Below, in pieces: positions 1,167 through 18,375 of a DNA stretch of 32,000 nt. This DNA is from Propionibacterium freudenreichii subsp. freudenreichii. Its GTDB lineage: Bacteria > Actinomycetota > Actinomycetes > Propionibacteriales > Propionibacteriaceae. The position numbers were made by a program, and so were the translations under genes. Location of the stretch: assembly GCF_000940845.1 (NCBI RefSeq), contig NZ_CP010341.1, positions 1,800,001-1,832,000 on the forward strand, in the 5' to 3' direction. The notes under the pieces are model-generated. The model searched no databases. It was not told where the DNA came from and was given only the letters and a program-made list of their open reading frames with translations. The number at the start of each line of letters is the position of its first letter. Position 1 is the first letter of the stretch.

Positions 1167-1492
1167 CACACCCACCCCCACAGGTATCCCGCGAAGAAGC
1201 TGACGGAGAAGAGGAGCACTGCACCCACCACCAGCAGGACGACTGCCCACGGCGTGACGGCCGCGGAACCGGCGGTTGCTTGCGGCGCACTGCCGGGAGC
1301 GGTGACCACGGCGGGCGCCTCCGCCCCATAGCCCTGGGCGGGCTGCCACAGGGGTTGGTTCCCCGGGGGCGTCGGCGAGGTGGGAGGCATGGTCGCCTCC
1401 GATGTCAGCGGGGCCACCGGCGTCCCACATTGCTGGCAGACGGTGGCGCCGGTGGGAAGAGGAGCACCGCAATTTCCGCAATAGAGCTGCAT
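1166..1492 (-). CDS. zinc-ribbon domain membrane protein (108 aa)
   Basis: ORF 1166..1546 trimmed to the ATG at 1490-1492 (MQLYCGNCGAPLPTGATVCQQCGTPV = CxxC-x11-CxxC zinc ribbon). Pro-rich linker and C-terminal hydrophobic helix (WAVVLLVVGAVLLFSVSFFAGYLW). TGA overlaps the ATG of the next gene. Confidence 0.6.
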   Translation of the reverse strand: MQLYCGNCGAPLPTGATVCQQCGTPVAPLTSEATMPPTSPTPPGNQPLWQPAQGYGAEAPAVVTAPGSAPQATAGSAAVTPWAVVLLVVGAVLLFSVSFFAGYLWGWV

Positions 1493-2812: not shown

Positions 2813-2851
2813 TCAGACGTTGAACCGGAACTCCACCGCGTTCCGGCACAT
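2813..2851 (-). repeat. relic of the canonical ychF 3' end (R4), encodes MCRNAVEFRFNV*
   Basis: Minus strand reads atg tgc cgg aac gcg gtg gag ttc cgg ttc aac gtc tga. It shares ggtggagttccg (12 nt) and aacgtctg (8 nt) with the real ychF end, and gaactccaccgc (12 nt, plus strand) with copy R2. It lacks the 5-nt insertion present in R1-R3. Confidence 0.7.
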
Positions 2852-3031
2852 AGGTACATCTGAACACGGGGTTCACGTGCGCCCTCTCCCCACGGTCAGT
2901 GCTCGCTACTGATCAGGGGACACAGGCTCACCCTCGACGTGGGTCAGCCTGCTGGACGCCACGAAGGCGGTAGCGCGCCATCACGGCGGCAGGGAACCCG
3001 GCTGAGACGCCACATACTAGGGATCTGAAGA

Positions 3032-3059
3032 GGGCTCGACCATGCCAGCGGTCGGCCCC
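3032..3059 (-). terminator. possible stem-loop at the stop codon of the 667-aa ORF
   Basis: gggctcgacc (3032-3041) and ggtcggcccc (3050-3059) can form about 9 bp with one bulged T and an 8-nt loop. No U-tract. Weak call. Confidence 0.25.
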
Positions 3060-5005
3060 TATTCCTTCGCGAGCACGGCGTTATCCGTCAGGCAGAAGTC
3101 ATCGTTGATCTTGATGACCAGCGCAACGAGTAGGCGGAGCGCTGTTAGATACGTGTGGCGGTGAACGCGGTCGTCGTCACCGTCTGCCTGTGATCCATGG
3201 AGGTAGCGGTTGCGCAGGCTAGGTCCGTTGCTGAACTCCTTATCGTTAAGGAAGTAGTTGAAGTAGCTGACCTCCGCGGCGCTGAGCAGCGTTGATCGAT
3301 GCGCCAGCCATCCGGCGCTCACCATCTCGTCAATGGCTTTCTGGCCGGCCGCCGAGTGATGGAGACAGCTCGTCACCTCGCACTCCCAGAGTTCCTTGAG
3401 CACATGCAATTGTGGCGCGCTTGCAAACGCAATTCGGTCACGATCTCCGGTCAGGATGCCCTTCTCGACCAGGAAGTCGATGTTGCGCTGTTGGTACTCG
3501 TGGAACTGGTCGTAGGCGATGTCATTGGCGATGACCAAGTGGAGGAAGCTCTCTGCCTCCAGATCGCTGCTGATGTGCACCAATCCGGATTGGTCCGAGA
3601 AGAGCAGGTGCTGAATTCCTTGGATGTCTGCGTTGTTGGCAACGTAGGCGTACTTATCCACAACCTGACTCGGGATGTCGCCGTAGGAAAGCTGCCCCGA
3701 TGTGATTGTCAGCAGCTCCGGGTCAACCTCGCCGTAGTCGACATGCAGCGTGAACTGCTTGAGGACGCTCTCCATCTCTGAGAACAGATGGCGGCTCTTC
3801 TCAAGGTAGGTAGCGGTCGGGCTGGAGGCGCGGTACTTCAGCCCCTTGGCACCGAACTCCTGCTCAAGGTAGTCCGTGAAGAACCAAGCGATGACCAACT
3901 CGAGCTCTATACCTTCGGAGCTGAGGAAGCGCTCGTACATCAAGGTCTGGAGCAAGGACGCCTGGTCCTGGAGCCTGAACGCCGCCCCCGTCCGGTAGTC
4001 GCCCTTGCCCGGCGTACCCATGAACCGCTCGAAGACGCCAAGTTGCGCTCCGTAGGAAGGGAGTTCCAGGAGCATGTGGTCGTTGGCGAACTGGAACAGG
4101 TGAACGAAGTTATTCAGGATAGTCGGGTAGTCGAGGTTCTCCGTGAGCCAGGTTCGACTGTAGGAGTACTTGCCAACCATGCCGTCCAAAGACTTGACGA
4201 CCTCTTCGACCTGATCGGCCGAGATGCCCACTTCGCAGCCGGTCTTGATCCCCTCCGTGGACTCGAACATCTTCTTCGTGAGCGCATCTGCCTTGCGACG
4301 AGCCTTTAGCTTCAGTCGTGCATCGACGCCGGTGTTCTTGTCAGCTCGTGCGGATGCGATCAGCTTGACGAAGTTGAGGTTGGGCTCTTCCTCATCGAGG
4401 TAGCGGTCAAACAGGCCACGCTGATCCGCGGGAGTGAAGCTCTTCGGAAGATGGATTGGATCCCGCCCCTCGGACTGGAGGAACTTCCGCGCAAGCAGCT
4501 CAGCATTGCGCGGCCCAGCGAGTAGCAGGGCCCGAATCTCCTGGTCGTAGGCACGCACGAGTGCCTGGCATGAGAGCAGATCGTGCGGGTGGAAACTCTG
4601 CTCTTGAAGTGCAGCAAGCACGATCGAGTCAGTGCAGCGCTCGAAGACCTTGTTCTTTCCGAGGAGGTCGAGGACGTCTGTGCGGTACTGAAAGTCAACG
4701 TCCTGAACGAGCGTTGAGAAGGTGGCGTCAGTCACTTTGCCGAAAAACCTGCCGATGACTTTCCGGATCTCGGGGCCGTGCGCCAGAGGCGCGTCTCGCT
4801 CTGCTTCGGCCAGGTCCTTCGGGAGAACTTTGTGTTCTAGGAACAACGCGAGATGATGCAACTCAACGATGTCGTTTATGCCTTGATCGCCACGAGTAGC
4901 ATCGAATTCACGGACGAGCTCTAGGAGGCGGTCGGCCTGCCAGAAGGTTCCGTAGTCGCTGAGGCCGAAGAACTTCAGTCTCTTCTCTGGTCCGCTTTCC
5001 GACAC
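3059..5005 (-). CDS. large hypothetical protein with C-terminal HEPN-like RNxxxH motif (648 aa from GTG 5005; ORF open to 5062 = 667 aa)
   Basis: Long uninterrupted ORF in lower-GC DNA. GTG at 5003-5005 is preceded by gggagggagattcga (strong SD), so it is preferred over GTG 5062. C-terminus reads ...FSNGPSLRNRYLHGSQADGDDDRVHRHTYLTALRLLVALVIKI (R-N-x3-H followed by a helix). The remainder is helical with no recognised family. Confidence 0.65.
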   Translation of the reverse strand: MSESGPEKRLKFFGLSDYGTFWQADRLLELVREFDATRGDQGINDIVELHHLALFLEHKVLPKDLAEAERDAPLAHGPEIRKVIGRFFGKVTDATFSTLVQDVDFQYRTDVLDLLGKNKVFERCTDSIVLAALQEQSFHPHDLLSCQALVRAYDQEIRALLLAGPRNAELLARKFLQSEGRDPIHLPKSFTPADQRGLFDRYLDEEEPNLNFVKLIASARADKNTGVDARLKLKARRKADALTKKMFESTEGIKTGCEVGISADQVEEVVKSLDGMVGKYSYSRTWLTENLDYPTILNNFVHLFQFANDHMLLELPSYGAQLGVFERFMGTPGKGDYRTGAAFRLQDQASLLQTLMYERFLSSEGIELELVIAWFFTDYLEQEFGAKGLKYRASSPTATYLEKSRHLFSEMESVLKQFTLHVDYGEVDPELLTITSGQLSYGDIPSQVVDKYAYVANNADIQGIQHLLFSDQSGLVHISSDLEAESFLHLVIANDIAYDQFHEYQQRNIDFLVEKGILTGDRDRIAFASAPQLHVLKELWECEVTSCLHHSAAGQKAIDEMVSAGWLAHRSTLLSAAEVSYFNYFLNDKEFSNGPSLRNRYLHGSQADGDDDRVHRHTYLTALRLLVALVIKINDDFCLTDNAVLAKE

Positions 5006-5436
5006 TCGAATCTCCCTCCCGGTAGGCGTCACTCTATACAGTTCGGGGGCGCCTAGTGGCACGAATTTGAAGTTGTTGCCTGATCGTGCAGCAGTCCCCT
5101 TGGGCGGAGCCGTCGTCCACGTCGATCGTTGCGCCGGCTCCTCGTTCTGTCGTGGAAGCGAGCCGAACTAGCGGCGCATCACCCCGAGGCGGACACGACC
5201 TACGTCTCCATGGGCATAATCCCGCGCCCCATCGGGCTCCTCCCCACCGCGGAGCGGCGCACGACGGACGATGCACAACTACGCGGGTAGGTCCCTTGCA
5301 AAAGCGCCGGGCACTAGTCCTGACTCAACACTCGACAAGAATCATCAACGAATCTCACTAGTTATTGATGGGCCTACCCTGGTTTTTCGGACACTTGATG
5401 TGGCGGGGCCTGGTGGCCCTGGGGGAAGGTGTTGTC

Positions 5437-5742
5437 ATGAGCACGGGGAACGAGAAGACGCGGAGGCAGCGTCGCAAGTTCACGGCACAGTACCGCCATG
5501 AGGCGGCGAGGATGGTGATCGACTCGGGTCGCACGATCGCCGAGGTCGCCCAGGAACTGGGGCTGGGTCCCCAACTGTTGGGCAGGTGGGTGAAGGCAGA
5601 GAAGGAGACCATGACGCCGAGCACGTTGAGTCCGGATGAACGCGAGGAGTTGAAGCGGCTCCGCAAGGAGAACGCGGACCTGCGGATGGACAACGAGTTC
5701 TTGGGAAAAGCAGCGGCCTTCTTCGCTGCGAAGCATCAGTGA
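5437..5742 (+). CDS. IS3-family transposase OrfA (HTH, 101 aa)
   Basis: ATG 5437 after gggggaaggtgttgtc. MSTGNEKTRRQRRKFTAQYRHEAARMVIDSGRTIAEVAQELGLGPQLLGRWVKAEKE... is a typical IS3/IS911 OrfA with a leucine-zipper-like tail. Confidence 0.85.
   Translation: MSTGNEKTRRQRRKFTAQYRHEAARMVIDSGRTIAEVAQELGLGPQLLGRWVKAEKETMTPSTLSPDEREELKRLRKENADLRMDNEFLGKAAAFFAAKHQ
5703..5709 (+). promoter_or_regulatory. candidate programmed -1 ribosomal frameshift heptamer G_GGA_AAA (IS3 orfA to orfB)
   Basis: In the orfA frame the codons are ttg gga aaa gca, giving the X_XXY_YYZ pattern gggaaaa. The -1 frame is open from here into orfB (..LGKSSGLLRCEASVSEKYTLMQ..). Confidence 0.5.
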
Positions 5743-6360
5743 GTGAGAAGTACACGCTGATGCAGGCGGAGAAGGCTCGGTACCCGATTGCCCGGATGGC
5801 CCGCCTGTTGAAAGTGTCCACTTCCGGGTACTACGCGTGGGTTGCGGCCCAGCAGCGGGATGGGGATCATCTTCTCCCCAGCCTCCGGGCGCGTCGGCGC
5901 CTGGATGAGGCGGTGCGCCGCATATGGGTGGACTCCCGAAGCACGTACGGGTACCTGCGTGTGTGCGCCCAGCTTCGCCGTGAGGGGGTGGTGGTGGATC
6001 GTAAGACGGTGGCGGCCTTGATGCGCCGTCAGGGCCTTGCGGGCATCAGCCCGCGCCGGTTCCGTCCGGTGACGACGATACCGGGGACGCGCACGCATTC
6101 GATCCCTGACCGGGTCAAGCGACACTGGGACACGGGGCAGGTGGATCGCGTGTGGGTCACCGGCATCACCTACCTGAGGACGCGGGCCGGGTGGGTGTAC
6201 CTGTGCGCCATCAAGGACGCTTGCTCCCGGAAGGTCATCGCAACCGCCATGTCGACGACCATGACGACGGACCTCGTGGAGGAGGCGTTGCGTTCGGGCT
6301 CGCATTCTTCGCCCGAACGCGCCCAGGAAAGTGATCATCCATTCCGACCGTGGCACGCAA
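5739..6360 (+). pseudogene. IS3-family transposase OrfB, N-terminal part (frameshifted, truncated by IS30 insertion)
   Basis: YPIARMARLLKVSTSGYYAW... and ITYLRTRAGWVYLCAIKDACSRKVIA (HTH_21 and start of rve). The best-matching reading moves from frame 0 (..LVEEAL) to frame 2 (AFGLAFFARTRPGK*) to frame 1 (VIIHSDRGTQ) between about 6290 and 6333, implying two indels. Confidence 0.8.
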
Positions 6361-7857
6361 GGTGAATTCAACTGGTCGTCGCAACACCTTGACCGTGGAG
6401 GTGTTCAGCTGTGGCGACGAGGGACTGGGCCGCGAAGACGAGCGATGTGCCCGAGGGTGCGCGTCGGCAATGGCGTGCGGATCGGGCGTTGCGTCCGCCG
6501 ATGCGTTCGCCCGGGCGGCCTGAGCCCTCGCGGGCGGTGCAGCGGCAGTTCTGGCGTCTGATCGCGACGGGCATCACCTCAGCCGAAGCGGCTCTGAAGG
6601 TGGGCGTGTCTGTGCCGGTCGGGTCCCGTTGGTTTCGCCACGCTGGCGGCATGCCACCGATCTCACTTGCCGAGCCCAGCGGCCGTTACCTGTCCTTCGA
6701 GGAGCGTGAGGAGATCGCGCTCCTGCGCGCCAAGCAGGTCGGCGTGCGTGAGATCGCGCGCAGGATCGGCCGCGACCCGGGAACGATCTCCCGCGAACTG
6801 CGCCGCAACGCGGCCACGCGCAGCGGGAAGCAGGAGTACCGGGCGTTGGTAGCGCAATGGAAGGCTCAGCAGACAGCGAAGCGCCCGAAGACGGCGAAGC
6901 TCGCGACCAACGACCGGTTGCGTGAGTACGTTCAGGAGCGCCTCGCCGGAAACGTCTGTCGGCCTGACGGCAGCATCGTCGTGGGGCCGGAACCGCCGGC
7001 ATGGAAGGGGCTGAACAAACCTCACCGGCAGGACCGGCGGTGGGCGACCGCGTGGAGCCCGGAGCAGATCTCGCACCGGCTGAAGGTCGACTTCCCGGAT
7101 GATGAATCCATGCGCATCAGCCACGAGGCGATCTACCAGTCGCTGTTCATTGAGGGCCGTGGTGCGCTCAAACGCGAGCTCGTCACGTGCCTGCGCACCG
7201 GCCGCGCCCTCCGGCAGCCGCGGGCTCGAGCACAGAACCGCCCGCAAGGTCACGTCACCGCCGATGTCGTGTTCTCCGAACGGCCCGCAGCAGCCGCGGA
7301 CCGCGCCGTGCCCGGGCATTGGGAGGGCGACTTGATCATCGGCACGGGCCGGTCCGCGATCGGCACTCTCGTCGAACGCAAGAGCCGGTCGACCCTGCTG
7401 GTGCACCTGCCGAGGCTGGACGGGTGGGGCGAGGCGCCGCCGATCAAGAACGGGCCCGCGTTGGGCGGCTACGGCGCAGTCGCGATGAACGCCGCGCTCA
7501 TCGCGTCGATGATGAAGCTCCCCGAACAGCTCCGCAAGACGCTCACCTGGGACCGCGGCAAAGAACTCTCCGCGCACGCCCAGTTCGCGCTCGAGACGGG
7601 CACGAAGGTGTTCTTCGCCGACCCCCACTCGCCCTGGCAGAGGCCGACGAACGAGAACACCAACGGGTTGCTGCGGCAATACTTCCCGAAGGGCACCGAC
7701 CTCTCACGATGGTCCGCTGAAGACCTCGAAGCAGTCGCCCTCGCACTGAACAACCGACCCCGCAAGAGCCTCGACTGGAAGACCCCCGCCGAAGTATTCC
7801 AGGAGCAGTTACACTCGCTCCAACAACCCGGTGTTGCAACGACCGGTTGAACCCAGG
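6361..7857 (+). mobile_element. IS30-family insertion sequence (1497 bp) inserted in IS3 orfB
   Basis: Terminal inverted repeats ggtgaattcaactggtcgtcgcaacacc versus reverse complement of the right end cctgggttcaaccggtcgttgcaacacc. 3-bp direct duplication caa at 6358-6360 and 7858-7860. Removing 1500 nt restores HSDRGTQ|FTSEQMYE in frame. Confidence 0.9.
6501..7850 (+). CDS. IS30-family transposase (449 aa from ATG 6501; ORF opens at GTG 6411)
   Basis: N-terminal HTH (FWRLIATGITSAEAALKVGVS; REIARRIGRDPGTISRELRRN). DDE region with HWEGDLIIG, TLTWDRGKELS and NENTNGLLRQYFPKGTDL. The stop lies inside the right IR. Confidence 0.9.
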   Translation: MRSPGRPEPSRAVQRQFWRLIATGITSAEAALKVGVSVPVGSRWFRHAGGMPPISLAEPSGRYLSFEEREEIALLRAKQVGVREIARRIGRDPGTISRELRRNAATRSGKQEYRALVAQWKAQQTAKRPKTAKLATNDRLREYVQERLAGNVCRPDGSIVVGPEPPAWKGLNKPHRQDRRWATAWSPEQISHRLKVDFPDDESMRISHEAIYQSLFIEGRGALKRELVTCLRTGRALRQPRARAQNRPQGHVTADVVFSERPAAAADRAVPGHWEGDLIIGTGRSAIGTLVERKSRSTLLVHLPRLDGWGEAPPIKNGPALGGYGAVAMNAALIASMMKLPEQLRKTLTWDRGKELSAHAQFALETGTKVFFADPHSPWQRPTNENTNGLLRQYFPKGTDLSRWSAEDLEAVALALNNRPRKSLDWKTPAEVFQEQLHSLQQPGVATTG

Positions 7858-8148
7858 CAATTCACCTCCGAGCAGATGTATGAGTGCTGCCGGGAACTCC
7901 ACCTCGACCAGTCAATGGGACGCACCGGGGTGTGCTGGGACAATGCGATGATCGAATCCCAGTGGTCCGTGTTGAAGGCTGAGTTCTACGACCGCTACGA
8001 GTGGGACACCCCCCAGCAGGCCATTCAGGGCGTGGAGGAGTGGATCTACGACTTCTACAACACGAAGCGCCTCAACTCAGCGATCGGCTACCAGACCCCA
8101 GTCGAGTTCGAAGCCCAACACGCGGCAGCCCTGACACGGGCCGCCTGA
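7858..8148 (+). pseudogene. IS3-family transposase OrfB, C-terminal part
   Basis: (Q)FTSEQMYECCRELHLDQSMGRTGVCWDNAMIESQWSVLKAEF...KRLNSAIGYQTPVEFE is the rve-domain C-terminus. It continues 6331-6360 in frame once the IS30 is removed. Confidence 0.85.
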
Positions 8149-8184
8149 ACCAATCCAACCGTCCGAAACTTGCGGGTAACCCCA

Positions 8185-8743
8185 GGACCCGTTCCATGTG
8201 GTGGCGTTGGCCGGGGACAAGATGAACCAGACCCGGCAACGAGTGCAGCGGGAACTCACCGGCGGCCGGGGCCGCCGCGACGACCCGCTCTACAAGGCCC
8301 GCCGCCTCCTCCACACCGGTATCGGTCTGCTCACCGAAAGGCAGAACACTCATCTGGATGCGCTGTTCGCCACCGATGACCACGCCGAGGTCGAGATCAC
8401 CTGGAGCGTCTACCAGAACATCATCGCCGCCTACCGCAACCCCGACCGGACCGCAGGGAGGACGGCGTTGTCGAGGCTGATCGACGCGATCAAGACCGGC
8501 GTCCCGAAAGGGCTGGAGGAACTGGCCCAGCTGGGGCGGACCCTCCACAAGCGCCGCTCAGACATCCTGGCGTTCTTCGACCATCCGGGCACCTCGAACG
8601 GTCCAACGGAAGCGATCAACGGCCGTCTCGAGCACCTCCGCGGCATCGCGCTCGGGTTCCGGAACCTGGCCAACTACCGACTCAGGTCACTCCTCGAAGC
8701 CGGCGGCTTCAGACCCCTGCTCCACTCATTTCTGTGAAGAGCC
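8185..8743 (+). pseudogene. ISL3-family element remnant (3' third of transposase plus right IR)
   Basis: The reading frame from 8186 (DPFHVVALAGDKMNQTRQRVQ...GPTEAINGRLEHLRGIALGFRNLANYRLRSLLEAGGF) parallels residues DPFHVVQLAGD...GPTEALNGRLEHLRGSALGFRNL of the full ISL3 at 12750-14185. It ends in ttctgtgaagagcc (ISL3-type IR). The 5' two-thirds are missing, replaced by IS3. Confidence 0.85.
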
Positions 8744-8834: not shown

Positions 8835-11810
8835 TCAGTTAGACAGGACCTGTTTGATCAGCGAAGCGATATCATCGCGGTGCACCTGATCGCGGAACGT
8901 CACATCGATATCTTCCGAGCTCATCGCCTCGAAGAACCGTTGCGCCGCCGTCATCCTGAGCTTCTCGCTCTCGCGGAGGTCGGAGCGCTTCTTGACGTCC
9001 TTCGTCTCGATGATGAAGTTTAGGGACAGACCGCCGTCCTCGCGTTTGAGCACGTACATGAAGTCCGGGCTCGTGGTTCCGCCGAAGTACATGGGGACCT
9101 TGATCGATCGGCGCGGGATCTTCCCGAAGACGATGACCGCGTCGAGCTTGGAGTCGCGGATCGTGTCATGCTCCTTCGGTGAGTCATACACAAACGCGTC
9201 GTACAGGAACTTGTCCGGAACGATAGCCTTTTCGTCGCGGAAGACGCCGATGTTGCCCTGCGTGATGCTCTCGAGCGGGGCACCATCTGCATCGGTGAGT
9301 TCCGTGCCGAGTACGAGCCCCTCGATCTTCGAGTACGTGAACCGCTCGAGGTAGTTACGCTCCATCCACTCCGTGAACCCAGCAACAAACTCATGCAGGG
9401 TCGCCTTGTTGAAGAAGTCGGCGGGGAGGCTCTTCTTCGCGTCGAGGCGGACGAGCCCCGCGTGGACACGATCGATCGGCAGTCCCGTCTGAGCACGGAC
9501 ACGCTTCAGCCAGTCGCCGTACGGCATCGTCTCGGTTGCGTTGAAGACCTTCTTCGTCTCCGTCCGAACCTCCAGGGACGAGCCCTCGTCAGCCTGCACG
9601 ACGACATCTTGCGCGAATCGACCGAACTCCTGCCGGTAGATATCAGCGCCCAGCACCTCGTCGATGCACTCATCGATCTCGCCGGCCGCGAGCTCGTCGA
9701 GGCGGAGGTAGTACTTGGCGTTCAGCGTCTCCCAGAGGTCCTTGAGCGCGGAGTACCGCTCGGAGCGAATGCCGACCTTAACCTTCTGATTTCCCTTCAC
9801 CACCTTGTCAGGCTTCAGGCCCGTCTTGTTGAACGCGGGGTAGGCAGCGAACAGGTCATCTTCGCGCCCCGGTACGACGTTCTTGTCGGGATCGACGAGC
9901 CCCTGCTGCAGGAGCTCGATGAAGAGTTCCGTCTCCGTCTTGCCGAGCTCGTCGGCGACCTTGGGCAGTAGCTCCTTCACCTTGGCTGGGCCCACGGCGA
10001 CGTCGGAGTTGATCTCGTCGACGAGAGACTCGGCGAACTTTTGCTCCGTGTAGTCGATGAGGTAGGTGAGGTAGAACTGCTCGCCCGCGAGACGAGTGCC
10101 CTTCGCGTCCACGGGCAACCGGAGGCCACGGCCCACCTCCTGGAGCTTCGAGATCTCCGACCCGGACGACCGGAGCTTGACGATCTGGAACACGTTCGGG
10201 TTGTCCCAGCCCTCACGGAGCGTCCACTTCGAGAACAGGAATCGACGAGTGTTCGGCGCACCGTTCGCCGTCTCGAAGGACAGCATCGCCTCCTTGTTGC
10301 GGAGGATGTCGTCGACCTCTCGCTGGATGGCCTCGTCGGTTGTGGAGTTGTCCGCGGAGAAGTATCCACCGTTCGCCGCCTCGACGTCAGCGAGCGACGC
10401 CCGCAGGTAGGCGACATACTCCTTCGCGACGGGCGAGGAGTCGCCCTCGCGCTTCTCGATCTCCGCGGTGAGCCGTGCAGCGAGGAGCTCCTCGAAGCGC
10501 TGCCTGAGGTGCCCTTTCGAACCGTCGCTGCCGCGATAGGACTCGATCGAGTCGATGAAGAACAGGGTGAGCGTCTTGACCCTGGACGAGCGGCGGAAGT
10601 TCTCCCACTCGGTCTCGAAGTGGTTGTCGAGTGCCTGCCGCATCATCAGGCTCTGATAGGTGTCGGAGTAGACCCGGGCCGAGAGGATGTCCCCTGTCCC
10701 CAGCGCCTGACCGTTGGACAGCGTGACGCCGGACTTGATCGTCGGGTTGTCGGTCCTACCGATCCCCTCGATTGTGATGCCCGCGAATGCGCGGTCCGCA
10801 ATGCCGAGGGACTCCCCCATATCGAAGGTGAGGGACTTCCCCGTGCCGATGTTCTGGAACGTCGCCTGCTTCGGCTTGCGCGCAGAGACGCTCGTGAGTT
10901 TCAGGCGCGTCGTATCGCTGCTGCTGTCCTGTGGGTACTGGACCTGGACGCCCTTGACCAACTGCTCGTTAAACGACTCGACGGCACCGAGGTTGAACAC
11001 GAGGTTGTTGTAGTCGGTCTTCCCCGTCTTGCCGAGCTCCGGGAACGTCGCGCCGAAGCGGAAGACCGCCAAGGGCCGGATCTCGTCGATGAGCGTCTGA
11101 TACGCCTTGTTGTCGCGTCGGAAGCGATGCGGCTCATCCATAATGACGATGGGGCGAGTCCCACGAAGCGCCTCGTAGGGGACACTGGTCGTGCCGAGCA
11201 CCGTCTGGTCGTAGTCGAACGCCATCGTCTTCTTCGACTGCAGCATGCCGTCGGTCATGAGGAGAGCGGAGATCCGACCAGGCGAGAGCCGCGAGCCGTG
11301 CACGAAGTTGACAACCGAGTTCGGCATCATCTTCCGCCCCTTCGATCGCTTCTGCGGATCGAGGACATCGAGGCGCAGCTCCATCTGCGGGCCGTACGCA
11401 TCAGCGAAGTACTGGCGTGCGTAGTCCGACCGGATGAACGCCTTCGCGCCTTCCTTGATCGGTGTCGAGGGCACGAGAAGGATAAACTTCGTGAAGCCGT
11501 AGAGGCGGTTCAGTTCGTACATGAGCTGCGTGTAGACCAGCGTTTTGCCGGTGCCGGTCTCCATCTTGGCGTCGACCCCGAGAACACCGTCATCTACGTG
11601 TCCCCGCCATGGACGAGGGATCGCAGCAATCCCGTCCACAACACCCGACTGGATCGCGTTGATGTTCTCGCGAAGCTGAGGATCCGCCGGGTCAAAGGCG
11701 ATGTTCGCCGCGGGCGGGGTACTGGTGTCGAACTCCACGTCCCTGAAGACGCGGGTCAGCGCATTCAGCGCACGCTGCTGATGTTCCAGAGTCTGAAGTC
11801 GGATCTGCAT
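8835..11810 (-). CDS. res: type III restriction enzyme Res subunit (SF2 helicase plus C-terminal PD-(D/E)xK nuclease), 991 aa
   Basis: Motif I KMETGTGKT. Motif II VIMDEPHRF (DEPH). C-terminal SPDFMYV...FIIETKDVKK nuclease-like motif. Starts 3 nt after the mod stop (tga ccc atg). Confidence 0.9.
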   Translation of the reverse strand: MQIRLQTLEHQQRALNALTRVFRDVEFDTSTPPAANIAFDPADPQLRENINAIQSGVVDGIAAIPRPWRGHVDDGVLGVDAKMETGTGKTLVYTQLMYELNRLYGFTKFILLVPSTPIKEGAKAFIRSDYARQYFADAYGPQMELRLDVLDPQKRSKGRKMMPNSVVNFVHGSRLSPGRISALLMTDGMLQSKKTMAFDYDQTVLGTTSVPYEALRGTRPIVIMDEPHRFRRDNKAYQTLIDEIRPLAVFRFGATFPELGKTGKTDYNNLVFNLGAVESFNEQLVKGVQVQYPQDSSSDTTRLKLTSVSARKPKQATFQNIGTGKSLTFDMGESLGIADRAFAGITIEGIGRTDNPTIKSGVTLSNGQALGTGDILSARVYSDTYQSLMMRQALDNHFETEWENFRRSSRVKTLTLFFIDSIESYRGSDGSKGHLRQRFEELLAARLTAEIEKREGDSSPVAKEYVAYLRASLADVEAANGGYFSADNSTTDEAIQREVDDILRNKEAMLSFETANGAPNTRRFLFSKWTLREGWDNPNVFQIVKLRSSGSEISKLQEVGRGLRLPVDAKGTRLAGEQFYLTYLIDYTEQKFAESLVDEINSDVAVGPAKVKELLPKVADELGKTETELFIELLQQGLVDPDKNVVPGREDDLFAAYPAFNKTGLKPDKVVKGNQKVKVGIRSERYSALKDLWETLNAKYYLRLDELAAGEIDECIDEVLGADIYRQEFGRFAQDVVVQADEGSSLEVRTETKKVFNATETMPYGDWLKRVRAQTGLPIDRVHAGLVRLDAKKSLPADFFNKATLHEFVAGFTEWMERNYLERFTYSKIEGLVLGTELTDADGAPLESITQGNIGVFRDEKAIVPDKFLYDAFVYDSPKEHDTIRDSKLDAVIVFGKIPRRSIKVPMYFGGTTSPDFMYVLKREDGGLSLNFIIETKDVKKRSDLRESEKLRMTAAQRFFEAMSSEDIDVTFRDQVHRDDIASLIKQVLSN

Positions 11811-11813
11811 GGG

Positions 11814-12749
11814 TCAGTACCGCTCGATCACCGAGACGGTCTGCCCCGACCGAAGCGACGTGAGATTCTGCTTCAGCTCGTGCATGACCGAGAACGGCAC
11901 CGAGTACCCGAAGACGACGAGACGCTTCAGATCGAGCTCACCGGCCTCGAGCTTGGCCACGAGCGCCATCACGTCGTCGCTGTCGAGTCCCGACTCGATG
12001 ACGTAAGCGGAGTCCTCGCAAACCTTCAGCTTGTAGTCATCGAGCCCCACGTCGTTCACCTCAGGCGTCAGGCCGAAACCGTCCTGAACGAGCCAAGTAG
12101 AAAGCGCGACCTGGTCTCCCGGCGTCCCGTGGGACGCAAACTTCGACACGAAATCGCCAGCAAACATCACGCCGTCCTCATTAGGATCGAAGGCCTGAAG
12201 CTGATCGAGCGTCTTCTCACTCGGCTTCTCGAGACGGAATAGACGGAAGCCGTAGTCGATCGTAGCGTTCGACTGATTCTGAATCTGTTCCGCTGAAGCC
12301 TGGATCCGCATCCGGCCAAGCTGGTCGATGGTATCGAATCCTGCCGTCGCCGCTTTCGTGCCGGGCGCTACCTTCTCCGGCCACTGGACTGCAATGTGGC
12401 GACGTGTCCCCGCGTCCTCAGCATTCAACTGCATCACCGCATGAGCGGTCGTTGCCGACCCTGAGAAAAAGTCGAGAACCAGCGCGTCGTCGGGCGCGAA
12501 CGAAACCAAGTACTTAATCAACGGGACAGGCTTCGGATATGGGAAGGGGCAACCCATCTCGGCAAGCGCGTTTCCCGCTGTCTCGACCGTCCCCAGATTC
12601 ATGAGCACGGTCAGAATGTGCTGTTGGTCCGCACGCCGGATCTTGACGTTGTCGATGGCTCCCGTGTTCGTGAGTTCGAAGACCGTGTCCTGCCCCTTGG
12701 AATCAACAACCGGGGCATACTCGCCAGCAATGAAGCTCCGCAGCAAAGC
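11814..12749 (-). pseudogene. mod: type III DNA methyltransferase Mod, C-terminal part (split by ISL3)
   Basis: ..LLRSFIAGEY...PYPKPVPLIKYLVSFAPDDALVLDFFSGSATTAHAVMQLN (AdoMet motif I FxGxG). Joins 14186..15213 in frame after removing the IS and one TSD copy (1028 + 928 nt = 652 codons). Confidence 0.88.
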
Positions 12750-14185
12750 GGCTCTTCACGATTGAGGGTGTAGTTGGGGTCTGAATCCTCCGGCCTCGAG
12801 GAGACTGCGGGCAATGTAGTTCGTCAGGTTTCGGAAGCCCAAGGCTGAGCCGCGCAGGTGTTCCAGTCGGCCATTGAGGGCTTCTGTCGGGCCGTTGGAG
12901 GTGTGGGGGCGCTCGAAGTAGGCCAGGACGTCTGTGGCGCGCCGCTTGAGGGTGCGCCCCAGGGTGATGATCTCAGCGAGGGCGGCGGGAACGCCGCGGC
13001 TGATGACCTCGATGACGTGGGCCAGCTGGGCTCGCCCGGCCTTGGGGTCGGGATCGCGGTAGGCGGCCACGATCTTCTGGTAGATGCCCCAGGTGGCTTC
13101 CACCCCGACGTGAGCGTCCTGGGCGAAGACGCCCTCCAGGCGGGTGCGTTGCTTGTCTGTGAGGAGATCCATCCCGGTGTGCAGGGTCTTGCGCACCCCG
13201 TACAGGGGATCCCCGGACCGGCCTCGATGTCCGGTGGTGTCTTGCTGGACGCGCTGGCGGCAGTGGTCCAGGGCATCGCCGGCGAGCTGGACGACGTGGA
13301 AGGGATCCATGACCTCCACCGCGTCGGGGAGTTCTTCCTTCGCTGCGGTCTTGAACCCGGTGAAGCCGTCCATGGCGACCACCTCAATCCGGTCGCGCCA
13401 CGCAGGGTCTTGCTGGCTGAGCCACTCCTTGAAGGCCTTCTTGGAGCGGCCCTCCACCATGTCCAACAACCTGGCAGGACCCCTTCCCTCGCGCAGCGGG
13501 GTGAGGTCGATGATCACGGTGACGAACTTGTCGCCCCTGCGCGTGTGCCGCCACACGTGCTCGTCCACCCCGATCGTGGTCACACCCTCGAAGCGATGCT
13601 CATCGTTGATGAGGACCCTGCGTCCCTCCTCCAGGACGGAGGTGTTGGCGCAGTCCCAGGACACGCCCAGACCCTCAGCGACCCGGGCGACGGTGAGGTG
13701 TTGGACGACGATGCCCGCCACGGGCCCAACGCAGTCCGCCCCGGGACAGTTTCGAGCGCGGCTGGGCCGCCCCAGTGGTGTCCTGCCTCCACACACGCCC
13801 ACACCCCGAACAGCGGTAGCGACGCACTCGCACCACCAGTGTCACCGGTCTCCAGCCCGAGGGCTCGTGGGCGAGGCGACGGACCACGGTGTCGCGGGGG
13901 ATCCCTTCGCACCCACACTCGCGACACCACCGGTCATCGTCCACCACCCGGCAGGCCACCTCGCAGCGATCCGGGAGGACTCTCTGGCCCACCACCACGA
14001 GGCCGAGGTCATCCAGGCGGGCGAACGTGGTCAGATCGGGGGCAGCAAAGGTAGCGTGGGACACGTCGGGGTCTTTCAGATGGGCAGCGTAGGAACTCCC
14101 ATCATCGGAAGACCCCGACCCTCACACCCACCCCGACACGCCAGCCAGACTCAACCCCCCGCTACACCCCGGATCGCGAAGAGCC
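12750..14185 (-). mobile_element. ISL3-family insertion sequence (1436 bp) inside mod
   Basis: IRs ggctcttcacgattgagggtgtagttgggg (12750->) versus reverse complement of the other end ggctcttcgcgatccggggtgtagcgggggg. Perfect 8-bp target duplication agcaaagc at 12742-12749 and 14186-14193. Confidence 0.92.
12756..14064 (-). pseudogene. ISL3-family transposase, frameshifted
   Basis: The N-terminal zinc-finger part (13675..14064: ...CRECGCEG...YRCSGCGRVWRQD...SRGGLRWA) and the DDE part (12756..13802: ..VAGIVVQHLTVARVAEGLGVSWD...) are in different frames. The switch is near tgggcccgtggcggg (about 13735-13750). Confidence 0.85.
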
Positions 14186-15213
14186 AGCAAAGCACCGTTG
14201 GCCCAGCCGGTCCGTGCCGTCACTCGGTTGATGAGCTTTCCTCCCGCGATAACCAAGTCCACGTCGTAGTTGGGAAACTTGTCGGTTCTCGCGGGGATAA
14301 TCCCTTCGTCGAAGCCAGCTGGAAACCCGGGTTCCAGGACGATCTCGGAGACAGGGTTCTTGGGACCATTCTTGACGACCGAGTTGCGGATCTCGTCGTT
14401 GAACAGCTTGCTCTCGTCGGACAGGTTCGGGTCCTTGACTCCGGCGATGAACATGTCTGGCACACGCTTCGCATACATGTGCACGTACTCGTGATTGATC
14501 TTGACTGTCGCCTGGTTGTCAAGATTCCCATCGGTCCGCCACGCGAAACTCGCGACGAAATTCTGTTCGCCGAACACCTCATCGCACAGCGCCTTGAGAT
14601 TCGCCTGCTCGTTGTCATCGATGCTGATGAAGATGATGCCGTCGTCAGCGAGCAATTCTTTCGCAAGCTCGAGTCGGGGATACATGAAGGTAAGCCACGC
14701 CGAATGCGACGACTTGCCTTGGAGCGCCATCACCCGCTCGGCCTCGTCCTCGTCAAGACCCACCTTTTCGACCAGGTCCTTCGCCGTGAAGCCGAAGTCG
14801 TCGACGTAGACGAACCCATCGGAACCCGTGTTGTACGGCGGATCGATGTAGATGCACTTGACCTGGCCCGCGTACGACCCCAGTAGGTGCTTGAGCGCAT
14901 CCAAGTTGTCACCGACGATGTACAGATTTTCCGACTCAGCGTTCGCCGCCTCAGCGTTGTGCTCGAGGTCAGGGACCATGACCGTCTCGGTCCGCGTCGA
15001 GGTCAGGTACTTGGCGTAGGACTTCCCGAGGAACTTGAGCTCGTAGCCTTCCCTCGTCATCGAAACGTCCGCGGAACTCAGCGCCTCCTGAAGGCGGTCG
15101 AGCCTGAAGCCGCCATCCTTGTCGAAGTACTCCGGCAAGACCGAGCGGAGGCGTGCCAGCTCAAAGTCGTTCGGCTTCGTGGTCTCGTTCGCTTCGTGCG
15201 CGTCCCTGATCAC
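14186..15213 (-). pseudogene. mod: type III DNA methyltransferase Mod, N-terminal part (split by ISL3)
   Basis: GTG start 15213 overlapping the TGA of mini-ORF R3. Catalytic motif IV CIYIDPPYNTGSDGF. The ORF track reading (14122..15213) runs on into the ISL3 IR. Confidence 0.88.
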
Positions 15214-15269
15214 TTCTTACCCCCAGACGTAATTCCCGTACGGAACTCCACCACGATTCGATCGCTCAT
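15210..15269 (-). repeat. ychF 3'-end copy R3 = 19-codon mini-ORF MSDRIVVEFRTGITSGGKK*
   Basis: 39/45 identity to ychF 17122-17166 over the core. Its ATG overlaps the TGA of the 312-aa ORF (ATGA). Its TGA overlaps the GTG of mod (GTGA). Confidence 0.85.
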
Positions 15270-16204
15270 AGTCCGAAATACTCCTTAAATCTCTGCCACA
15301 AGCTGCGATCTTCAGCACCTTCGCCGTGAGGCGCTGCCTGAACGAACTGCACGAAATAGGGCGTGCCGAGTATCACTCGACTCACGAAAGCTTCGCGGTT
15401 GGTCGACGCCGGCCCCCAGTTGAGGTAACTAACTTCAGCACCATCACCGGAGGTCGGGCAGTCGTGTACATCCAGACACATGAACGCAATTTCAACGTTC
15501 TGCTCACGAGAGTCGCTTAGAAGGTTTCTCGCCGCCAGGGCATAGTAGGGATCTCGCAACCAGCGTTCGTCACTATCCTCGCGCTCCTCCCCCAGCATCT
15601 TCGCTCTGAGGAGTTCGAACAGGTGCTCCGTTTGCGATCCACCCCGCCAGTCGGAAACGCTCCCGCCAAGCACCGTCTTAAGCTGACCTTCTGCCGTGCC
15701 GCTGAGCACCACCCAAGTTACGGATTGCGCTTCGTGCACGGGAAGGGTGTCTGGGATCTCAATCAGCCAAAGCCCAAGCCTGGGCGCATCCTCGAGCTCG
15801 TGCGGTTCTCTGAAATCATCATGGGTTCGGATGGCGAAACGGGTTGCTCCTCGGAAGTGATAATCGCGCCCCGGCTCGAACGCGGCACCGCGTTGAGCCG
15901 CAAGTGAGTGCGCTGTCACGTCGGCGAGAACCTCGGGCGCGACCGCGAGGAGCTGACTACGATCGGTGCGGTCGGATACTACGTTCGACTTCACTCCAGC
16001 TTCAAGAGCCCCGCTCACGATGAGACCACCCACGACACCAGCTGGAGAGACAGCGCCGACCCCTTTGGTCTTCGTGCTCGCGCTGTACGAGTGATCGGCG
16101 ATCGTGTGCCTACCAGCGATTAGCGCATCGGCAACCTTGTTTAGCCCTACGTAAAAAGCTCGCGACTGATCAAAGGACGGAGCACCCTCCATGTCGAGTC
16201 TCAT
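15266..16204 (-). CDS. hypothetical protein (312 aa), no recognised family
   Basis: ATG 16204 overlaps the TGA of mini-ORF R2 and is preceded by ctggggggaagaa (SD-like). Gly/Ala-rich hydrophobic stretch GVGAVSPAGVVGGLIVSGALEAGV near the N-terminus. Lower-GC island DNA. Confidence 0.6.
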   Translation of the reverse strand: MRLDMEGAPSFDQSRAFYVGLNKVADALIAGRHTIADHSYSASTKTKGVGAVSPAGVVGGLIVSGALEAGVKSNVVSDRTDRSQLLAVAPEVLADVTAHSLAAQRGAAFEPGRDYHFRGATRFAIRTHDDFREPHELEDAPRLGLWLIEIPDTLPVHEAQSVTWVVLSGTAEGQLKTVLGGSVSDWRGGSQTEHLFELLRAKMLGEEREDSDERWLRDPYYALAARNLLSDSREQNVEIAFMCLDVHDCPTSGDGAEVSYLNWGPASTNREAFVSRVILGTPYFVQFVQAAPHGEGAEDRSLWQRFKEYFGL

Positions 16205-16260
16205 TTCTTCCCCCCAGAGGGTATTCCGCTACAGAACTCCACCGCTTCACGCTTCGTCAT
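16201..16260 (-). repeat. ychF 3'-end copy R2 = 19-codon mini-ORF MTKREAVEFCSGIPSGGKK*
   Basis: 36/45 identity to ychF 17122-17166 over the core. Its TGA overlaps the ATG of the 312-aa ORF (ATGA). Its ATG lies within the last 14 nt of the 292-aa ORF. Confidence 0.85.
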
Positions 16261-17125
16261 CAGGATTACTCAGCCCCCCGGCCTCGGTTCCGATGGACCG
16301 GTCCGAGTGCGCAAGCCTAAGTTGTCCGTCGACGAACTGAGCGATTCGTCGATCGAATCGCTCACCGTGCTTGACCTCACGTCCACCAAAATAGTCTCCG
16401 GACTTGTCTCGCCAGACGAAGGCTTCTGAGAGTCCGTTCTGATAGATCTTCAACAACTGCGGGACGCCGCCGACTGTGCGGACATCGGCGTTATCAATCA
16501 GCCGCTGAAGCACCTGGAGGGGTTCCCAGTCGAGATTCGCCCTCCGCGCCTGCTCGGCTGCCTCCGGATGACCACTGAGCGGACGCGGTGCATTCTTCTC
16601 GTTGAGAATCTGGTAAAGATTCGCCCTAGCTTCCTGGCTAGCGTCACCTGCGAAATAAACCCCGTATGCAGTCGATTCATTCAAGTCACTAATAGACTTC
16701 ATCACCAACTCACCGCGACTGTCGTAACTATACGAGTACGCTTCAAACCGGAGGCGACGCCAAGACCACCCGAATAGCACGACATCGAGGTCCGGAACAT
16801 TAGCCGTCATTTGGCCCCAGGGAAGATCTCCGACGTCTTGACGGCTATCCGCATACAGGTCTCGCAGCTTGTTGGCGAGATATCGAATGTCAGTGCGCCC
16901 GATTTCATTGCCATCAAGTAGCAAGCACGCGTTCATCGCCTGAAGCACGAATGCATACGCCGTTGTTGCGTGTCCTGACATCGCTATTGCAGTCGCCGGA
17001 CGGGGAAGCGGGACAAGCTTGGGGCAACGGTCCCAGCTCTCACCACCGCTCAGTCGAGAGTCACTCACCGCGACCAATTCGCCGAGGGTCGCGTTCCTAC
17101 GAACCCACAACGCAACGAGTGTCAC
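16247..17125 (-). CDS. putative Ntn-hydrolase, HslV/proteasome-beta-like N-terminal domain with about 100-aa C-terminal extension (292 aa)
   Basis: GTG 17125 overlaps the ychF TGA (aagaaGTGAcactc). N-terminus M-TLVALWVRRNATLGELVAVSDSRLSGGESWDRCPKLVPL resembles E. coli HslV [23 protein letters not shown]...KKVRRL (recalled from memory). Thr follows Met, with an Asp about 20 and a Lys about 34 residues later. VYFAGDASQEARANLYQIL is comparable to AIGSGGPYAQAAARALL. Confidence 0.55.
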   Translation of the reverse strand: MTLVALWVRRNATLGELVAVSDSRLSGGESWDRCPKLVPLPRPATAIAMSGHATTAYAFVLQAMNACLLLDGNEIGRTDIRYLANKLRDLYADSRQDVGDLPWGQMTANVPDLDVVLFGWSWRRLRFEAYSYSYDSRGELVMKSISDLNESTAYGVYFAGDASQEARANLYQILNEKNAPRPLSGHPEAAEQARRANLDWEPLQVLQRLIDNADVRTVGGVPQLLKIYQNGLSEAFVWRDKSGDYFGGREVKHGERFDRRIAQFVDGQLRLAHSDRSIGTEAGGLSNPDDEA

Positions 17126-18213
17126 TTCTTGCCGCCAGACGTTAGTCCACTACGGAACTCCACCACGTCCCCGTCCTGCATCACGTATTCCTTGCCCTCA
17201 AGGCGCACGCGACCGGCCGCCTGGGCCTCCTTCATGCCGCCGTACTCGACCAGCTCGTTGAAGCTGACCACCTCGGCCTTGATGAAGCCCTTCTCGAAGT
17301 CGGTGTGGATCACGCCGGCCGCCTGCGGGGCGGTCCAACCCTTGTGGATGGTCCAGGCGCGCGATTCCTTCTCGCCGGCGGTCAGGAAGCTCTGTAGGCC
17401 CAGCGTGTCGTAACCCACCCGCGCCAACTGGTTCAGGCCGGGCTCCTCCACGCCGGTATCGGCGAGGAACTCCGCGGCCTCCTCGTCGCTCATCTCCACC
17501 AGTTCGGACTCGAACTTCGCGTCGAGGAAGATCGCCTCGGCGGGCGCCACGAGCTTGCGGGTGCGGTCCAACAGGTCGGCGTCGGCCAGCTGGTCCTGAT
17601 CGCAGTTGAACACATAGATGTAGGGCTTGGCGGTGAGCAGCCACAGGTCGTGCAACGGCTCGGGATCCAGCCCGGCCTGGAAGATGCCGGTGCCGGCGGC
17701 GAGCGTCTCATAGGCCTTGCGGTAGACCTCCGCCTTGGGTCGCGTCTCCTTGCGGATCGCGGCCTCCTTCTCCACCTTGGGCAGCACCTTCTCCAGGGTC
17801 TGCAGGTCAGCCAGCACCAGCTCGGTGGTGATGGTGTCAAGGTCGGAACCGGGATTCACCTGCCCGTCCACATGGGTCACGTCCACATCGGTGAACATCC
17901 GGGTGACCTGGCAGATCGCATCGGCCTCGCGGATATTGGCGAGGAAGGCGTTGCCCATCCCCTCACCCTGCGAGGCGCCCTTCACGATGCCGGCGATGTC
18001 CACGAAGGTCACCGTGGCCGGCACGAGCTTGGCCGAGTCGAACATCTTGCCCAGCACGTCCAGGCGTCCGTCGGGCACGCCGACCACGCCCACATTCGGC
18101 TCGATCGTCGCGAACGGGTAGTTCGCGGCAAGGGCGTCGTTGCGGGTCAGCGCGTTGAACAGGGTCGATTTGCCGGCGTTGGGGAGGCCGACGATTCCAA
18201 TGGTGAGTGCCAC
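17122..18213 (-). CDS. ychF: redox-regulated ATPase YchF (363 aa) with non-canonical C-terminus
   Basis: MALTIGIVGLPNAGKSTLFNALT (P-loop), TGS-like C-terminal domain. Ends ...YVMQDGDVVEFRSGLTSGGKK* rather than the usual ...F(R/L)FNV*. GTG start at 18213. Confidence 0.95.
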   Translation of the reverse strand: MALTIGIVGLPNAGKSTLFNALTRNDALAANYPFATIEPNVGVVGVPDGRLDVLGKMFDSAKLVPATVTFVDIAGIVKGASQGEGMGNAFLANIREADAICQVTRMFTDVDVTHVDGQVNPGSDLDTITTELVLADLQTLEKVLPKVEKEAAIRKETRPKAEVYRKAYETLAAGTGIFQAGLDPEPLHDLWLLTAKPYIYVFNCDQDQLADADLLDRTRKLVAPAEAIFLDAKFESELVEMSDEEAAEFLADTGVEEPGLNQLARVGYDTLGLQSFLTAGEKESRAWTIHKGWTAPQAAGVIHTDFEKGFIKAEVVSFNELVEYGGMKEAQAAGRVRLEGKEYVMQDGDVVEFRSGLTSGGKK

Positions 18214-18226: not shown

Positions 18227-18228
18227 AC

Positions 18229-18330
18229 CGTCGACCCGTTCCAACCGCCCGCAGCCACCGGCCGTCGACCCGTTCCAACCGCCCGCAGCCACCGGCCGTC
18301 GACCCGTTCCAACCGCCCGCAGCCACCGGC
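18229..18330. repeat. perfect 3 x 34-bp tandem repeat (gtcgacccgttccaaccgcccgcagccaccggcc)
   Basis: Copies at 18229-18262, 18263-18296 and 18297-18330 are identical. Intergenic between the ychF start (18213) and the aminopeptidase stop (18376). The unit is not a multiple of 3. Confidence 0.95.
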
Positions 18331-18375
18331 CGCCGAGCGCGTCCACCCCTGCCCCGAACGCCGCCAATCGCAGGC

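Follow-up and report, generated by a model that had tools for sequence, protein, structure and literature searches.

We analyzed a 32,000-nt stretch of the Propionibacterium freudenreichii subsp. freudenreichii chromosome (NZ_CP010341.1, positions 1,800,001 to 1,832,000; hereafter the window), which carries a gene for a 292-aa protein that is very probably an N-terminal nucleophile (Ntn) hydrolase of the proteasome-beta/HslV type. The gene, here called the protease gene, is accessory and foreign in base composition, with a local GC of 0.565–0.60 compared with 0.67–0.70 in the flanking core genes. It stands alone, with neither an AAA+ partner nor any other conserved partner, and in the window it forms a cassette of one gene, with no promoter of its own, flanked by copies of the ychF 3' end. 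The best explanation of the whole, to which we give about even weight, is an active, propeptide-free threonine Ntn hydrolase that most likely serves as a single-gene conflict or anti-phage effector. The lead is real and well founded, and more modest than that given in a preliminary description of this DNA, which had proposed an HslV-like peptidase with a further domain of about 100 residues partnered with the adjacent gene for a 312-aa protein.

Fold and similarity searches

The open reading frame (ORF) and its product opening M-T are as first described, with GTG rather than ATG as the start codon (17125–17123). An AlphaFold2 model of the product, built from 43 relatives, has a predicted local distance difference test (pLDDT) score of 87.3 and a predicted template modeling score (pTM) of 0.85. 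Together with Foldseek, the model places the four-layer alpha-beta-beta-alpha fold in the protease, with strands S1–S10 and helices H1–H4 in canonical order. The modeled strands (E) and helices (H) are E4-10, E15-21, E37-39, E45-51, H53-69, H80-96, E113-121, and E126-134 in the first half and E140-144, E157-159, H163-176, (H189-195), H201-211, E223-228, and E233-240 in the second. Their order matches that of the Thermoplasma acidophilum beta subunit (S1–S4, H1, H2, S5–S8, H3, H4, S9, S10).

Foldseek comparison of the model with the PDB yielded 1054 matches at E ≤ 1e-3, and all of the top 50 are proteasome subunits (E 7e-9 to 9e-8, probability 1.0, target template modeling [TM] score 0.54–0.68). 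Structurally the protease comes closest to 20S beta subunits, including actinobacterial PrcB chains, and the first match is Mycobacterium tuberculosis PrcB (3krd_R; E 7e-9, probability 1.0, target TM 0.62). Sequence identity to the top matches is 15–20%, and to PrcB 15–16%. A search of BFVD gave weaker matches only, to uncharacterized phage proteins.

The relationship is faint at the level of sequence. The protease has no match at E ≤ 10 in Pfam, NCBIfam, or the PADLOC defense-model library (PADLOC-DB 2.0) and none in PHROGs, and Pfam PF00227 is matched by two of the 43 relatives (best E 1.1e-4). A profile search of the PDB aligned residues LVvaSDSRlsGG..PK..amSG to residues 12–63 of a proteasome beta subunit (8ysx_F) at E = 1.9. 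Designed helical repeats returned by the same search were judged spurious, and the sole phmmer match in the PDB, a nucleosidase, was taken as chance. When the family was compared by hhalign with a five-sequence proteasome/HslV alignment, the match reached E = 3.6e-4 across residues 16–174. Two members of that set (T. acidophilum beta and Escherichia coli HslV) were verified against the PDB, a third (Archaeoglobus fulgidus beta) came from a PDB alignment, and the other two were human beta5 and M. tuberculosis PrcB. The resemblance to the proteasome/HslV superfamily is far beyond chance. Of the profile and structure searches proposed at the outset, the former left the protein itself without a PF00227 match, but the latter returned proteasomes.

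HslV itself fared less well. The family compared with E. coli HslV alone, in a sequence checked against the PDB, aligned over the same N-terminal stretch at E 0.11 and probability 0.5%, which is not significant. The superfamily fold and catalytic set named in the preliminary description therefore stand, but the specific likeness to HslV does not: there is no HslU, and 20S beta subunits match best. Orthology with HslV was rejected on these grounds, on the missing NCBIfam/Pfam match, and on differences in size and lifestyle.

Catalytic residues

Conservation was counted in an hmmalign alignment of 240 family members. The predicted N-terminal nucleophile, Thr2, is T in 214 of 215 aligned members, and the equivalents of Asp17, Lys33, and the oxyanion-hole Gly47 are kept in 225 of 225 (Asp22), 226 of 228 (Lys36), and 238 of 239 (Gly51). 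Asp22 aligns to D17 of 8ysx_F and to E17 of T. acidophilum beta, Lys36 to K33, and Gly51 falls on G47 in hhalign. The assignment of T2, D22, and K36 to the Thr1/Asp17/Lys33 set, first made by eye, is borne out by alignment to the proteasome and by near-invariance in the family. So is a proposed parallel between FAGDAS and GSGG, since hhalign puts G160-D161-A162 on G128-S129-G130; the same register puts G119-W-S on the G-G-I-D strand. A pseudo-enzyme was ruled out, as the catalytic residues are invariant.

The family has no propeptide, and its Thr always comes straight after the start codon. The start is MT in 190 of 239 database sequences, and in relatives annotated with N-terminal extensions M, V, or L directly precedes the conserved Thr, which indicates that these extensions are mis-called starts and not propeptides. 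Methionine aminopeptidase prefers small second residues, so removal of Met1 would be expected to expose Thr1, as it does for HslV.

Insertion and C-terminal extension

Two segments depart from the canonical fold. A poorly conserved insertion of ~25 aa lies between H3 and H4 in variable and gapped alignment columns (the model has H163-176, H189-195, and H201-211 in this region), and an extension of ~50 aa follows the core. The extension had been put at about 100 residues with no counterpart in HslV; it is real but shorter, because residues ~200–240 are the normal end of the fold (H4/S9/S10), as judged from the order of elements and from Foldseek alignments of ~235–280 columns (mostly 235–258) against targets of ~190–250 residues. 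A conserved P202 and a [VI]GGxPQ motif fall within those canonical residues. In the extension, residues 241–275 are structured and conserved (GGR...ERFDRR...SD), with three short extra strands in the model (243–246, 261–265, 268–272) and with G248, R249, and E255 nearly invariant (>95% of members). The last ~15 residues are disordered (pLDDT below 50).

A tandem cassette array at ychF

The GTG of the protease shares bases with the TGA stop of ychF (GTGA; stop at 17124–17122). The last 46 nt of ychF recur twice farther along the minus strand, and a repeat search gave these copies (copies 2 and 3, Table 1) 78–87% identity to the ychF end. Each copy ends in AAGAA(G/A)TGA, and the gene that follows starts at this (G/A)TG. 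Because the protease gene is bounded by such copies, the island is read as tandem cassettes inserted site-specifically into ychF. A partial repeat farther on is the displaced original ychF tail and marks the distal end of an island of ~14.3 kb, the span of which coincides with a low-GC block. It encodes the canonical VEFRFNV C terminus of YchF, which is also present in Scardovia. The sequences indicate insertion at the ychF codons for VVEFR, with every cassette supplying a substitute tail. The present YchF ends in …VEFRSGLTSGGKK instead of …VEFRFNV, an alteration attributed to the cassette insertions. Substitute YchF tails also occur in other genomes, …RIGSTSAGAK and …RFGTTSTSKSKV among them.

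No promoter-like or terminator-like site was found between cassettes on the coding (minus) strand of the window, so read-through from ychF and re-initiation within the repeat are likely. The protease would then be co-transcribed with ychF, with its translation starting in the duplicated ychF tail, and ychF is the probable source of transcription for the cassettes. The overlap of start and stop codons had been described as translational coupling; the overlap exists, but the coupling is a by-product of cassette insertion. Since a copy of the ychF tail provides the start of every cassette, the overlap is a property of insertion and not a functional link to YchF.

The same repeat design was found in Mycolicibacterium, Cryobacterium, and a metagenome contig. 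In Frigoribacterium the array runs from ychF through GmrSD and the protease with a small serine recombinase to a remnant ending in VEFRFNN, and in Rothia kristinae the repeats bracket a DUF6414 gene and the protease gene. Judged from these sequences, promoterless cassettes inserted site-specifically into ychF form an integron-like tandem array in at least five actinobacterial genera. The Frigoribacterium protease cassette is ~1.75 kb long and includes a convergent gene for a 282-aa serine recombinase (Resolvase domain) that overlaps the 3' end of the protease gene. In Actinomycetota, ychF is the reported integration site of serine-recombinase pipolins (PMC11551731). The Frigoribacterium recombinase may be the enzyme by which these cassettes move.

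Distribution and genomic contexts

The 92 close relatives of the protease are all annotated as hypothetical. A profile search of 1.84 billion cluster representatives identified 912 clusters with E ≤ 1e-3, of which 607 have E ≤ 1e-10. Close relatives come mostly from Actinobacteria, including Rhodococcus, and other taxa with relatives are Corallococcus, Burkholderia, Vibrio, Pseudoalteromonas, Marinomonas, and Halomonas; copies are carried on Klebsiella, Agrobacterium, and Rhodococcus plasmids. The family has a patchy spread across Actinobacteria, Proteobacteria, and Myxococcota and is found both on chromosomes and on conjugative plasmids. Patterns built for close relatives detected five loci among 185,579 species representatives and 16 metagenome loci, and none in IMG/VR contigs or in 50,697 phage genomes. 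Among 5426 complete E. coli genomes, 128 (2.4%) carry a distant member (~27% identity), the copies of which are ≥99% identical to one another and lie in an island with AlpA, an integrase, IS5, and ypjA. On the E. coli SCU-482 chromosome, the annotated coding sequence of 191 aa is shorter than the matched stretch and may be truncated there.

We examined about 16 independent genomic contexts, and about half of them contain recognized defense genes. The window has a type III restriction–modification (R-M) system, and the position of the protease beside it in a hotspot, as first described, is confirmed by Pfam annotation. Elsewhere the neighbors include GmrSD with a 4-bp overlap (Frigoribacterium); type III R-M and SMODS, with DUF6414, which is not a recognized defense gene, directly upstream (R. 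kristinae); HNH and VapBC (Mycolicibacterium); PLD, NucA, ApeA, TIR, and GmrSD (Saccharothrix); a KAP NTPase, TIR, and AAA_22 (Phytohabitans); Eco57I and DUF4365 (Actinokineospora); and mad3, mad8, mREase_II, AriA, and HipA (metagenome loci). In an Actinomycetota metagenome-assembled genome, the adjacent gene encodes a protein with an FRG domain and a match to PDC-S15 (E 5e-54), a candidate single-gene system in PADLOC, and this gene lies within a low-GC islet of ~4 kb. On a Klebsiella pneumoniae IncFIB plasmid (NZ_CP054968.1), a member with 32% identity lies directly downstream of genes for a GTPase and a LeoA/HP0731 dynamin-like GTPase, a pair that presumably resembles a described dynamin-type defense system. 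Marks of mobility without known defense genes surround the copies in Corallococcus (integrase and excisionase), on the Agrobacterium plasmid, and in E. coli. Uniformly housekeeping contexts, the outcome that the preliminary description had named as counting against its proposal, were not found.

No partner gene recurs. An all-against-all BLAST of ORFs within 4 kb of the protease at 13 loci recovered only ychF and the protease itself, and no antitoxin-like small partner was repeated among these neighbors. Neither the window nor any of the ~16 annotated contexts has an AAA+ gene, hslU included, next to the protease. Domain fusions in the 10 longest relatives amount to one SDR fragment, probably an assembly or frameshift artifact, and helical tails. 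ORFs of ~290 aa beside the Corallococcus copy were compared as possible paralogs and are not.

Comparison with known proteasome homologs

Like the beta subunits of 20S proteasomes (M. tuberculosis PrcB, T. acidophilum PsmB; PF00227, MEROPS T1), the protease has the same sandwich and the same S1–S10/H1–H4 order, equivalents of Thr1, Asp17, Lys33, and Gly47, a DSR motif, and a GG before S9. Unlike them, it is without a propeptide, has the H3/H4 insertion, and carries its ~50-aa extension where 20S subunits have H5. No alpha-subunit, Pup-system, or ATPase genes are near it, and it is a mobile accessory gene. With HslV (ClpQ) it shares a bacterial host, a propeptide-free M-T start, and alignable N-terminal ~70 residues. 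HslV, however, has 176 aa compared with 292 aa, is a conserved housekeeping operon gene rather than a rare, horizontally moved cassette, and pairs with the AAA+ unfoldase HslU, whereas the protease has no hslU or AAA+ neighbor. BPH and Anbu are also stand-alone proteasome-like proteins without a dedicated unfoldase, but no sequence relationship to them was seen in any search made, and the extensions differ. Both are described as vertically inherited in defined operons or lineages (PMC5777263, PMC5666114).

A probable counterpart is in the catalog of Fuchs, Alva & Lupas (2021), which lists 22 uncharacterized families of proteasome homologs (PMC8665760). One of these, the "Distant Actinobacterial proteasome Homolog" (DAH), has Actinobacteria over-represented but also includes Proteobacteria. 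Its catalytic triad is intact, and an added C-terminal portion matches no known structure; the gammaproteobacterial GPH is the neighbor of DAH in the cluster map (PMC8665760). The protease family has the same Actinobacteria-dominated range with Proteobacteria, retained catalytic residues, and C-terminal addition, and its ~900 clusters probably correspond to DAH, as judged from that description. In light of that catalog, the idea at the level of the fold is probably not new. The difference lies in context: the authors found none suggestive of function (PMC8665760), whereas the protease is a ychF-targeted cassette, often beside defense genes. Papers citing the catalog have added no function for these families. 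PADLOC and literature searches likewise recovered no defense system built on a proteasome homolog, in agreement with the preliminary description.

Possible functions of the protease

Methionine aminopeptidase would expose Thr1, and the enzyme would then be able to cut peptide bonds in the cytoplasm. If the protease is a conflict effector, its assembly or its C-terminal extension might hold it silent until a phage or mobile-element cue released it, after which a specific host or invader protein would be cut in a manner analogous to Lit. Lit, encoded by the e14 element of E. coli, is a single-gene mobile-element protease that does no harm until a phage product prompts it to cleave an essential host factor. 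Because Lit is a zinc metalloprotease with a fold unrelated to the proteasome, the analogy is functional only and concerns the proposed mechanism. Taken on its own, a role in defense, as suggested by genomic association, is possible and is held tentatively. That the protease represents a new class of single-gene immune effector, namely a self-contained proteasome-like protease cassette that is unleashed by a phage or plasmid cue and aborts infection, is doubtful.

Several points weigh against an effector protease. The contexts are a convenience sample, and the association with defense genes is a raw proportion among them. Neither defense nor mobility genes surround the copies in Paenarthrobacter (beside HSP20, DnaJ, and MerR genes), in one metagenome locus (beside aconitase), or in Microbacterium. 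The classical Ser129/Asp166/Ser169 network is not retained: Ser129 is replaced by Asp161, and the Asp166/Ser169 pair is not conserved, its positions corresponding to V215 and V/I218 in an approximate manual register on the GG motif (V218-G219-G220), beyond the hhalign span. The chemistry could therefore differ, and since the relatives of the proteasome include a ligase, connectase, even the term protease is uncertain. It also has to be supposed, purely by conjecture, that an otherwise unregulated free-Thr1 protease is restrained.

The alternatives are not mutually exclusive. The protease could be an accessory proteostasis or stress enzyme, self-compartmentalizing and ATPase-independent like BPH or Anbu, that clears damaged or unfolded proteins and happens to ride in variable islands. 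Fuchs et al. (2021) suggested that many of the new homologs may clear unstructured proteins without dedicated partners (PMC8665760), and the stress-related neighbors of the Paenarthrobacter copy and coupled expression with ychF, which encodes a stress-linked ribosome-associated ATPase, are consistent with such a role. A very patchy distribution (five loci among the species representatives, 2.4% of E. coli genomes), foreign GC, a cassette and plasmid lifestyle, and recognized defense genes in roughly half of the contexts argue against it, and we consider it unlikely.

The same fold might instead carry out other chemistry, either as a sequence-specific peptide ligase or transpeptidase like connectase or as an amidohydrolase whose substrate is a non-protein amide, for instance a signaling molecule or cell-wall peptide. 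Connectase is a monomeric Thr1 proteasome homolog that ligates proteins, and the H3/H4 insertion and C-terminal extension of the protease are at sites that may prevent ring stacking (PMC8665760); the change of Ser129 to Asp and the missing Asp166/Ser169 pair point the same way. However, Thr1, Asp17, Lys33, Gly47, and the substrate-strand region (DSR..GG) are kept as in peptidases, and the connectase signature, a helical S3/S4 insertion with loss of H1/H2, is absent from a model that has H53-69 and H80-96. This reading is rather improbable.

Service to a mobile element, through counter-defense that degrades host immune proteins or through an addiction or exclusion toxin that stabilizes the cassette, would fit the integrase/excisionase islands in Corallococcus and E. 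coli, the pairing with a small serine recombinase in the 1.75-kb Frigoribacterium cassette, and the presence on conjugative plasmids. It is quite improbable given that phage genomes and IMG/VR contigs yielded no close relative, that no antitoxin-like small partner recurs, and that many loci are chromosomal, among bona fide host defense genes. Finally, entry into the host 20S proteasome as an alternative catalytic subunit, with an immunoproteasome-like change of specificity, would agree with the actinobacterial PrcB top matches and the mostly actinobacterial close relatives, but relatives are also found in Vibrio, Burkholderia, Klebsiella, E. coli, and Agrobacterium, which are not known to have 20S proteasomes, and the missing propeptide, an insertion at the ring–ring contact, and the low identity to PrcB make it extremely improbable.

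Other genes in the window

The next cassette encodes the 312-aa protein, which has no match in Pfam, NCBIfam, PADLOC, or PHROGs. Its AlphaFold2 model has a pLDDT of 72 and a long low-confidence beta-hairpin at residues 34–75, and a fold search against the PDB returned nothing better than E 0.045. The functional pairing with the protease that had been suggested fails. Without the protease, the 312-aa gene overlaps the ychF stop in Cryobacterium, stands alone behind ychF in Scardovia wiggsiae, and lies inside an integrase island in Rothia koreensis, and the protease gene occurs without it in every other context examined. A two-gene system was therefore rejected; since each gene occurs without the other, the 312-aa gene is an independent, recurrent ychF cassette.

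The third cassette begins with the type III mod gene, which is split by an ISL3 transposase that itself looks frameshifted; the R-M system beside the protease is therefore probably inactive. Insertion sequence (IS) remnants are piled up farther along the island (5739–8737), and two large ORFs without a family match lie near them. Just upstream of the ychF start, and up to the end of an M18 aminopeptidase gene, a 34-nt unit (CCGTCGACCCGTTCCAACCGCCCGCAGCCACCGG) is repeated three times in tandem.

Table 1. Coordinates of the protease, its functional residues, the ychF-tail repeats, and other features (positions are those of the window unless another locus is named)
Feature	Position	Strand	Remarks
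Protease ORF	16247–17125	minus	292 aa; GTG start, TGA stop; stand-alone proteasome-beta-like Ntn hydrolase; from ORF list
Core, residues 1–240	16406..17125	minus	S1–S10, H1–H4; from secondary-structure order, hhalign over residues 16–174, Foldseek lengths
H3/H4 insertion, residues 177–200	16526..16597	minus	
C-terminal extension, residues 241–292	16250..16405	minus	
Codon 2, Thr	17120..17122	minus	Predicted nucleophile
Codon 22, Asp	17060..17062	minus	Asp17 equivalent
Codon 36, Lys	17018..17020	minus	Lys33 equivalent
Codon 51, Gly	16973..16975	minus	Gly47 equivalent
Codon 161, Asp of G-D-A	16643..16645	minus	Ser129 position of G-S-G; D in 213/236; family-specific substitution
Repeat copy 1	17122..17167	minus	Last 46 nt of ychF (…VVEFRSGLTSGGKK, then stop); final GTGA holds protease start
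Repeat copy 2	16201..16246	minus	Directly after protease stop; final ATGA holds 312-aa gene start; downstream cassette boundary
Repeat copy 3	15210..15255	minus	Final GTGA holds type III mod start
Partial repeat	2826..2845	minus	Core GGTGGAGTTCCG, then GTTCAACGTCTGA (VEFRFNV and stop, canonical YchF end)
ychF (ribosome-associated ATPase)	17122..18213	minus	Pfam YchF-GTPase_C and MMR_HSR1; insertion target
312-aa orphan protein gene	15266..16204	minus	Start in repeat copy 2
Type III mod, N-terminal part	14122–15213	minus	
Type III mod, C-terminal part	11814–12746	minus	
ISL3 transposase ORFs inside mod	12756–13802 and 13675–14064		
Type III res	8835–11810	same as protease	Downstream of protease
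ISL3 fragment	8198–8737		
IS30-type transposase	6411–7850		
Truncated IS3-type ORF	5739–6365		HTH_21 and rve
Large ORF	3059–5062		667 aa
Large ORF	57–1481		474 aa
34-nt tandem repeats	18228–18348		
Repeats, L001 (Frigoribacterium sp. Leaf263)	6089–6134 / 7959–8004 / 9704		
Protease cassette, L001	7959–9715		
Repeats, L002	6984–7029 / 8880–8925		
Repeats, L005	7942 / 11672 / 12341		
Repeats, L022	6962 / 8482		
Repeat, L026 (metagenome contig)	3153		
Context, L011 (Actinomycetota metagenome-assembled genome)	11290–12048	minus	PDC-S15/FRG gene beside the protease
Context, L042 (K. pneumoniae IncFIB plasmid)	2963–7834		GTPase, LeoA/HP0731 gene, and family member
Family member, L045 (E. coli SCU-482)	12001–12768		

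Implications

Threonine proteases of the proteasome type are familiar as machines of housekeeping degradation. To our knowledge, of the dozens of divergent bacterial homolog families, only HslV, BPH, Anbu, and connectase have a function or an informative context. The locus described here supplies an orphan family with the mobile, defense-island context that was formerly reported to be lacking, and the array at the ychF tail neatly illustrates how cassettes can accumulate site-specifically in a protein-coding gene of Actinobacteria. Because the protease gene lies in mobile defense islands and on plasmids, its role is open to concrete, inexpensive experiment. If the effector reading is true, the proteasome fold would have its first anti-phage system, and an orphan family of proteasome homologs its first function. 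A defense protease of this kind would add a new catalytic fold to bacterial immunity, and if the protease proves to have another function, the roles open to the orphan homologs would still be narrowed.

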